This document shows, in pieces, positions 4 through 1,198 of a stretch of DNA of 1,198 nucleotides. How positions within the stretch are numbered: position 1 is the stretch's first letter; the number at the start of each line of letters is the position of its first letter. The notes under the pieces were generated by a model that saw nothing but the letters and a program-made list of their open reading frames with translations, was not told where the DNA came from and made no database searches. Origin of the DNA: Escherichia coli (GTDB lineage: Bacteria; Pseudomonadota; Gammaproteobacteria; Enterobacterales; Enterobacteriaceae); NCBI RefSeq assembly GCF_003334765.1, contig NZ_QOWT01000083.1; one strand, given 5' to 3'. Made by a program: the position numbers and the translations under genes.

Positions 4-19
4 GGAAGGTGCGAATAAG
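4..19. repeat. IS5 terminal inverted repeat, transposase-distal end (16 bp, GGAAGGTGCGAATAAG)
   Basis: Matches the reverse complement of 1183..1198 at 15 of 16 positions (mismatch at IR position 13, window position 16: T here versus C at the other end). Complementarity does not extend inward beyond 16 bp. Confidence 0.9.
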
Positions 20-149
20 CGGGGAAATACTTCTCGGCTGACTCAGTCATTTCATTTCTTCATGTTTGAGCCGATTTTTTCTCCCGTAAATGCCTTGAAC
101 CAGCCTATTTAGACCGTTTCTTCGCCATTTAAGGCGTTATCCCCAGTTT
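20..149. promoter_or_regulatory. Non-coding subterminal region of IS5 downstream of the transposase; AT-tract-rich, candidate for the bent-DNA/IHF-binding region reported for this end of IS5
   Basis: Seen in sequence: no long ORF; several T/A runs (e.g. 'catttcatttctt' 48..60, 'gatttttt' ~73..80, 'agttttta' ~145..152) and an 11-bp palindrome TGACTCAGTCA at 39..49. Established knowledge: the transposase-distal end of IS5 is reported to carry an IHF site and intrinsically curved DNA that can activate adjacent promoters. I could not locate a clean IHF consensus (WATCAANNNNTTR) by eye, so exact site placement is unresolved. Confidence 0.3.
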
Positions 150-1175
<1,026 letters not shown>

Positions 1176-1182
1176 TCAGGGA

Positions 1183-1198
1183 CTTGTTCGCACCTTCC
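1183..1198. repeat. IS5 terminal inverted repeat, transposase-proximal end (16 bp; + strand CTTGTTCGCACCTTCC)
   Basis: Reverse complement GGAAGGTGCGAACAAG pairs with 4..19 at 15 of 16 positions. The element terminus coincides with the last base of the window. Confidence 0.9.

Follow-up and report, generated by a model that had tools for sequence, protein, structure and literature searches.

The closest described system to the DNA analysed here is the IB ('internal bend') region of IS5, defined by Zhang & Saier (2009) as the 3'-terminal 177 bp of the element (PMC2753651) and made up of the 146 bp of subterminal non-coding DNA at the 3' end together with the last codons of ins5A. The sharp curvature of this end of IS5 and its putative IHF site are credited there to Muramatsu et al. 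(1988) (PMC2753651). Schnetz & Rak (1992) is a further reference for the region. Activation of glpFK without Crp was found to require IB and to need nothing else of IS5, and the lac promoter was activated likewise (PMC2753651). In crp cells IB alone was as active on the glpFK promoter as the whole of IS5, and an unrelated 178-bp fragment of IS5 did not activate glpFK (PMC2753651). Placed alone before lacZ, in a construct that tested the outward direction, IB had no promoter activity, and the transposase is not needed because glpFK activation was also seen in the IS5-free strain B (PMC2753651). Activation depended on helical phase: a 5-bp spacer abolished it and a 10-bp spacer did not. Deletion of ihfA, or mutation of the IHF site, removed 50-60% of the activation. 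Mutation of A-tracts 1-3 caused a strong loss of glpFK activation, which was abolished on further deletion of ihfA, and mutation of the distal tracts ('4-8') left 85% of activation intact, a cost of about 15% (PMC2753651). Additive activation by bend and IHF, in which the transposase plays no part and IB supplies no promoter, is experimental for glpFK, at -126.5, and for lac, and preliminary evidence indicated that RNA polymerase's alpha-subunit C-terminal domain is dispensable (PMC2753651). What IB evolved for was left open by Zhang & Saier (2009) (PMC2753651).

Sigma-70 promoters are also activated by curved upstream DNA and by A-tract or UP-like elements (Bracco et al., 1989, and Aiyar et al., 1998, both through PMC2753651), which are described as likewise phase-dependent, as relying on an intrinsic bend and as able to substitute for Crp. 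In IB, by contrast, a mobile element brings the bend, which is situated over 100 bp upstream and works together with IHF.

IHF, as a host bending protein, also binds close to both IS1 ends and to the outside end of IS10/Tn10; within the Tn10 transpososome it folds that end. IS5 differs from these elements in having its IHF site at one end only, approximately 85-97 bp from the tip and within a static A-tract bend, and the IHF sites of IS1, unlike that of IS5, bring about no gene activation. Loss of IHF reduces insertion of both IS1 and IS5 about 10-fold, an effect similar in size to that on Tn10 in vitro. For IS5 the reduction was seen as about 10-fold fewer Bgl+ insertions on loss of ihfA, with IS5 promoter activity unchanged, and was read by its authors as IHF shaping the end of the element for the transposase.

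Identity of the element and location of the segment

We analysed a stretch of 1198 bases (the window), within which positions 20-149 had been flagged as a candidate promoter-activating region by a first-pass annotation made from the sequence alone. The window consists of TAA followed by a complete IS5 of 1195 bp, whose transposase is encoded on the minus strand. In a megablast search the whole window matched E. coli records annotated 'IS5-like element IS5 family transposase' with 99.9% identity over 100% of its length, and matches were present in 2874 of 5426 complete E. coli genomes. Five substitutions, at positions 29, 100, 310, 552 and 1145, distinguish it from IS5A of K-12. The features considered below are as follows.

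1-3, no strand: flanking bases TAA, outside the element; IS5 starts with GGAAGG at position 4
4-1198, minus strand: complete IS5, 1195 bp (megablast)
4-19, no strand: terminal inverted repeat of the 3' (transposase-distal) end, GGAAGGTGCGAATAAG, pairing with 1183-1198
1183-1198, no strand: terminal inverted repeat of the 5' (transposase-promoter) end, pairing with 4-19
150-1130, minus strand: ins5A (insH) transposase coding sequence, 326 aa as annotated (open reading frame list; K-12 annotation 'IS5 transposase and trans-activator')
4-180, no strand: IB ('internal bend') region, 177-bp 3' end of IS5 (published primer; curvature and phasing computed)
39-49, no strand: perfect palindrome TGACT-C-AGTCA, exact in the sequence, with no supported function
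50-80, minus strand: promoter-proximal phased tracts at 50-52, 55-57, 65-67 and 75-80, the published 'A-tracts 1-3' (oligos IB-Atract-1F/R and 2F/R)
87-100, minus strand: IHF binding site, GTTCAAGGCATTTA (window) or ATTCAAGGCATTTA (K-12) (oligos IHF-mod1 and IHF-mod2)
100, no strand: private substitution, C for T, at a W position of the IHF consensus beside the TCAA core
108-151, minus strand: distal phased tracts at 108-110, 117-119, 128-130 and 147-151, among the published 'A-tracts 4-8' (oligos IB-Atract-3F/R)

The assignment to IS5 agrees with the organisation of the element: about 1195 bp in length, with 16-bp imperfect inverted repeats of the form GGAAGGTGCGAA(T/C)AAG, of which 15 of 16 positions are complementary (94%), and a single long open reading frame predicted to encode the InsH/Ins5A DDE transposase (100% identity to annotated IS5 transposases in tblastn). 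The open frame of ins5A reaches an ATG at 1166, which would give 338 aa, and ends with a stop codon at 150-152. The TAA of the left flank is compatible with positions 2-4 of a 4-bp YTAR target such as CTAA, the window ends without a right flank, and related copies are flanked by CTAA, CTAG or TTAG duplications. Two further observations were made outside the 3' end. A GATC (Dam) site at 1167-1170 lies immediately upstream of the distal transposase ATG (1166), at the promoter end of IS5, and antisense open reading frames of 84-98 aa with TTG or GTG starts lie on the plus strand within ins5A (199-479 and 558-854).

The flagged segment is situated between the inverted repeat of the 3' end and the transposase stop codon. 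IB corresponds to positions 4-180 because the primer with which it was cloned, AATGATACGTCAGTGGGAGAG, matches 160-180 in reverse complement; this primer and all of the published mutagenic oligos map exactly onto 29-180. The segment thus belongs to a region already known as IB, the 3'-terminal 177 bp, which lies downstream of ins5A and takes in the last part of that gene. IB of this copy and the published IB of K-12/BW25113 are the same object, with two differences within it, A29 and C100; A29 is a common variant, found also in copy H116. We put the probability at about 0.9 that positions 20-149 are the core of IB, a static bend and an IHF-induced bend that together activate a resident promoter, and that the palindrome within them is most likely a chance occurrence.

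An imperfect inverted repeat, AGTGAGA-TC-TCTCCCACT, was seen at 152-169, where ins5A ends; it shares bases with the final codons of the gene and includes a GATC (Dam) site (157-160). No other clear local hairpin appears in the fold of the transposase strand, and no U-run follows this one on either strand. Copies of IS5 and ISKpn26 hardly vary in the repeat, the exception being a frameshifted copy with a 1-bp deletion in 152-181.

Phased A-tracts and predicted curvature

The flagged segment had been described as non-coding, with runs of T or A at roughly helical spacing, and a curvature prediction had been proposed as a check. No open reading frame of at least 30 aa overlaps 20-149 on either strand, and the non-coding DNA at this end extends over 146 bp (4-149), compared with 32-68 bp at the other end of the element. 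Runs of three or more identical bases were found at 25-27 and 88-90 (A) and at 50-52, 55-57, 65-67, 75-80, 108-110, 117-119, 128-130 and 147-151 (T); those at 50-80, being T on the plus strand, are A-tracts on the transposase strand. AA/TT dinucleotides recur with a period of 10.3 bp in 4-180, with a power of 2.12 as against 0.67 ± 0.27 in dinucleotide-preserving shuffles (1000 per test), one of which (1/1000) matched it.

Curvature was predicted using three dinucleotide wedge models (AA-wedge, Bolshoy-Trifonov and De Santis). All three placed the strongest sustained bend of the element at approximately 60-150, and in all three the most curved 177-bp windows of IS5 were at the IB end. The ratio of end-to-end distance to contour length for 4-180 was 0.73-0.80 across the models, compared with 0.92-0.94 for the shuffles, of which 0-26 in 1000 were as compact, and with a median of about 0.97 for 177-bp windows of the element; the wedge-angle parameters and the models are approximate, so that these absolute values are indicative only, and the test of periodicity is free of such parameters. 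Phasing of the tracts is real and well above chance, because shuffled sequences rarely reach this periodicity or compactness. The ten A/T runs, their periodicity and the predicted ratio together point to in-phase A-tracts with a permanent bend, as described for IB. A scan of 1-200 against Rfam (E ≤ 1) detected no known RNA family.

The IHF site and a substitution at position 100

A central IHF site with a TCAA-N4-TT core, putative in this copy, lies within the bend. On the minus strand the core occupies 98-95 (TCAA) and 90-89 (TT), and exactly these bases were altered in the published oligos. The match to the IHF consensus WATCAANNNNTTR is weak, with two mismatches in K-12 (ATTCAAGGCATTT), three in the window (GTTCAAGGCATTT) and three in ISKpn26. 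The third mismatch in the window is due to C100, and a scan of the window allowing up to two mismatches consequently misses the experimentally defined site in this copy; the same scan returned 9 matches as against 8.4 expected, indicating that the consensus alone is uninformative.

T at position 100 was invariant in all 10 of the IS5 and ISKpn26 copies compared, and the window has C. The 61-mer at 70-130 had no perfect counterpart among 20,395 E. coli records or 72,556 plasmids. C100 may be a mutation private to this copy or may reflect an error of sequencing. It leaves the predicted curvature essentially unchanged and might weaken IHF binding in this copy. The published activation data were obtained with the K-12 IB sequence and not with this exact copy (PMC2753651). 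A copy bearing C100 offers a natural test of the weight of the flanking base in IHF binding.

Promoter activation by the bent end

By the mechanism established with glpFK and lac, the phased A-tracts on the transposase strand (spacing of about 10.3 bp) would give a static curve to the DNA, and the IHF site at 87-100 would add a protein-induced bend. When IS5 lies upstream of a promoter with the IB end proximal and on the correct helical face, the two bends would act additively to activate transcription without Crp.

The first-pass annotation had identified IS5 and linked its bent, IHF-related end to the activation of bgl, glpFK, flhDC and fucAO. Its recognition of the element and of a promoter-activating end was correct, as was the route for glpFK, but the extension to the other three operons went too far; activation through this end has been shown only for glpFK and for an engineered lac promoter. 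For fucAO, involvement of IB was tested directly and not found (PMC11894529). That operon is activated from a fusion promoter which uses the opposite, transposase-promoter end of IS5 together with an upstream Crp site (PMC11894529). Secondary accounts describe activation of bgl by IS1, IS2 or IS5 in either orientation, attributed to lost H-NS binding and looping, and propose relief of H-NS repression for flhDC, in which system IS1 and IS3 insertions are also reported.

Comparison with ISKpn26

The closest relative of IS5, ISKpn26, is found in Klebsiella and on E. coli plasmids and has the same length, the same inverted repeats and a 98% identical transposase. Identity between the two is about 91% over the whole element and about 82% over 1-260 of the window, and the subterminal part at 20-100 is heavily diverged. 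The tracts at 75-79, 108-110, 117-119, 128-130 and 147-151 are common to both. ISKpn26 has an AAAATTT tract in place of the TTT pair of IS5 (50-52, 55-57), a core of TCGA at the IHF site where IS5 has TCAA, and no right arm of the palindrome. Its equivalent of IB is predicted to be more curved than that of IS5 (ratio 0.52-0.68, as an indicative value).

Two copies, L004 (H137) and L005 (H138), are mosaic, being ISKpn26-like from the tip to approximately position 70 and 100, respectively, and IS5-like beyond, which indicates recombination between IS5 and ISKpn26 within IB. In five ISKpn26 loci (L006-L010, approximately 1-229 of the locus) PGAP annotated short 'hypothetical protein' coding sequences on the transposase strand, which start in the 3' end of the transposase gene and exit through IB and the tip into varied flanking DNA. 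These are probably context-dependent, spurious calls.

Curvature across the IS5 group

The plasmid matches listed in a tblastn search with the transposase were all IS5 or ISKpn26, with no distant relatives among them, and we therefore turned to phage records and two scans of viral contigs. Element ends were set by inverted repeats and target duplications. This gave 130 elements with validated ends and transposases approximately 51-100% identical, which fell into 26 clusters at ≥85% identity over the 3'-terminal 177 bp. One Pseudomonas element (L012), whose ends were undefinable, was left out. The sample was taken from viral contigs, and its clusters lack phylogenetic independence, some being 72-81% alike; the counts that follow should be read with this in mind.

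In 24-25 of 26 clusters the predicted curvature of the 3' 177 bp was greater than that of the 5' 177 bp, and the sequences concerned are unalignable. It ranked in the top 5% of windows of its own element in 17, 14 and 22 of 26 clusters with the three models (in 13 of 26 with all three together), and no more than 5% of dinucleotide shuffles were as curved in 20, 15 and 22 of 26. A test free of wedge parameters agreed: for 17 of 26 clusters, periodicity of AA/TT at 10-11 bp in the 3' 177 bp was stronger than in 95% or more of the shuffles, and for 19 of 26 it was in the top 5% of windows of the same element. A-runs were biased to the transposase strand, with 113 on that strand as against 37 on the other over the 26 clusters. 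The length of 3' non-coding DNA in the 26 representatives was 115-169 bp; it was 115-157 bp in all except L157, which has 169 bp and an inverted-repeat match of 11/16. Curvature at the 3' end is not obligatory, because two of the 26 lineages, L013 (RSY1-type) and L117, are without it. No earlier family-wide survey of curvature in the IS5 group was found in the literature that we searched.

A motif, GAAAATTGCAAC(C/T)TGCC, was common to L011 (ISBmu23; approximately 1660-1680) and L092 (approximately 1940-1960), in both at about 50-60 nt from the 3' end, and the 3' 177 bp of the two elements gave no BLAST alignment with each other. This may be a conserved subterminal site within the ISBmu23/L092 sub-lineage.

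What the bend may be for

The recurrence of a curved 3' segment in most relatives, despite sequences that cannot be aligned, indicates that the bend is probably for the benefit of the element itself. It would most likely shape the 3' end for the transposase and IHF in transposition, and activation of host promoters would then be a by-product. The comparison suggests such a role in transposition, which we infer from the pattern across relatives. We propose, tentatively and at somewhat less than even odds, that the curved, A-tract-phased 3' segment is a conserved architectural module of the IS5 group, selected on shape and not on sequence, which would make the two ends structurally unequal and aid assembly of the transposase, with or without IHF. 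Selection on shape for the sake of the element fits with the approximately 10-fold effect of ihfA on IS5 insertion.

Two other explanations of the curved segment were weighed, and we regard both as unlikely, to a similar degree. One is that the segment is simply an unconstrained, AT-rich 3' untranslated region or spacer, with curvature as a side effect of composition and activation as an accident. Its GC content is indeed lower than the element average (0.44 as against 0.53), and it is the most diverged part between IS5 and ISKpn26, at about 82% identity when the elements are about 91% and their proteins 98% identical. However, shuffles that keep composition were rarely as curved (0-26/1000) or as periodic (1/1000) as the segment, and curvature recurs in most of the 26 diverged lineages, GC-rich ones included, when primary sequence does not. 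The strand bias of the A-tracts (113 to 37) and the conserved length of the 3' non-coding DNA (115-169 bp) also speak against an unconstrained spacer.

In the other explanation the curved segment would serve the antisense promoter Pins5C, which reads rightward on the plus strand, as an upstream activating region, so that bend and IHF would drive the two small accessory genes of the ins5CB operon. Pins5C has been placed at the IB end in the literature, overexpression of ins5CB is reported to double IS5 transposition, and promoters can be activated by curved upstream DNA. Against this, the activity of Pins5C was reported as negligible and as unchanged on deletion or overexpression of ihfA. A consensus scan found no sigma-70-like site anywhere in the window, and IB alone before lacZ had no promoter activity in the outward direction that was tested (PMC2753651). 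Predicted curvature is kept in relatives only about 51-59% identical. Of these readings we prefer a bend that probably serves the element itself.

The palindrome at 39-49

The first-pass annotation had also pointed to TGACTCAGTCA, a palindrome with 5-bp arms, as a possible protein-binding site or part of a weak terminator of the transposase transcript. The palindrome is present at 39-49 exactly as described, but neither function was borne out. As a functional element it would bind a dimeric protein, or else form the stem of a weak terminator, either to stop the transposase transcript or to keep outside transcription from reading into the element.

Its position, as a perfect palindrome 36-46 bp from the end of the IS, is suggestive, and the distant relatives L013 and L014 likewise have a TGACTC, at 37-43 nt from the 3' end. 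In those elements, however, it has the other orientation from that in IS5, and the positional argument is weakened by the three occurrences of TGACTC/GAGTCA within IS5. Palindromes with 5-bp arms and spacers of 0-3 nt are not above chance in number, with 9 in the window as against 5.3 ± 2.5 expected, and 29% of shuffled 130-bp segments hold at least one of this class. ISKpn26 keeps the left half, TGACTC, but its right arm has become GCTGA or GTTGA, so that it reads TGACTCGCTGA, and relatives whose transposases are 81%, 70%, 59% and 53% identical do not have the motif. Conservation of TGACTC as a motif about 37-43 nt from the 3' end (IS5, ISKpn26, L013 and L014) was considered in its own right and rejected, the motif being absent in L082, L088, L092, L094 and ISBmu23 and inconsistent in orientation. 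In the published experiments the A-tract 1-3 mutant retained ATGACTGAGTCAGCCGAGAAG (oligo IB-Atract-2F) and gave zero activation in the ihfA background (PMC2753651). The palindrome is therefore not sufficient for activation, since it was intact in a mutant that was inactive in that background.

As for a terminator, a consensus scan did detect a weak terminator-like feature on the plus strand, a stem at 36-48 followed by ATTTCATTTC; this is within chance (1.1 ± 1.2 expected per window). On the transposase strand the palindrome gives a stem of 4-5 bp with a loop of 1-3 nt followed by GCCGAGAAG, which lies outside the minimum-free-energy fold (z = -0.9). It thus has neither the stable GC-rich hairpin nor the U-run on the transcribed strand that characterise an intrinsic terminator. 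RNA folds of 1-180 on the two strands were unremarkable (z = -1.7 and -1.4), as were those of the subterminal 54 nt (z = -0.9 and -0.4). Significant hairpins near the 3' end do occur in two relatives, ISBmu23 and L015. As a feature of the family a subterminal hairpin was rejected, it being significant in these two and not in IS5, ISKpn26, RSY1 or YO199.

The hairpin of L015, an IS5-family element from a fecal metagenome (433-1882 of its contig), is terminator-like, with the structure CCCCCATC-N7-GATGGGGG followed by TTTT at 1840-1870. It lies directly inside the 3' inverted repeat, where IS5 has nothing comparable.

A functional palindrome is the least probable of the readings considered, and the 11-bp palindrome is most likely a chance occurrence with no separate role.

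Implications for IS5 and its relatives

IB is a textbook-level case of a mobile element that activates a silent or Crp-dependent operon by means of DNA shape and not of a promoter that it carries. Finding it again from raw sequence adds nothing new to that account. Conservation of the bend across the family is a modest new lead, and it points to a role in transposition. If the bend is indeed a conserved module, elements of the IS5 group in Burkholderia, Ralstonia, Klebsiella and other hosts could be portable activators of promoters, dependent on orientation and on helical phase.
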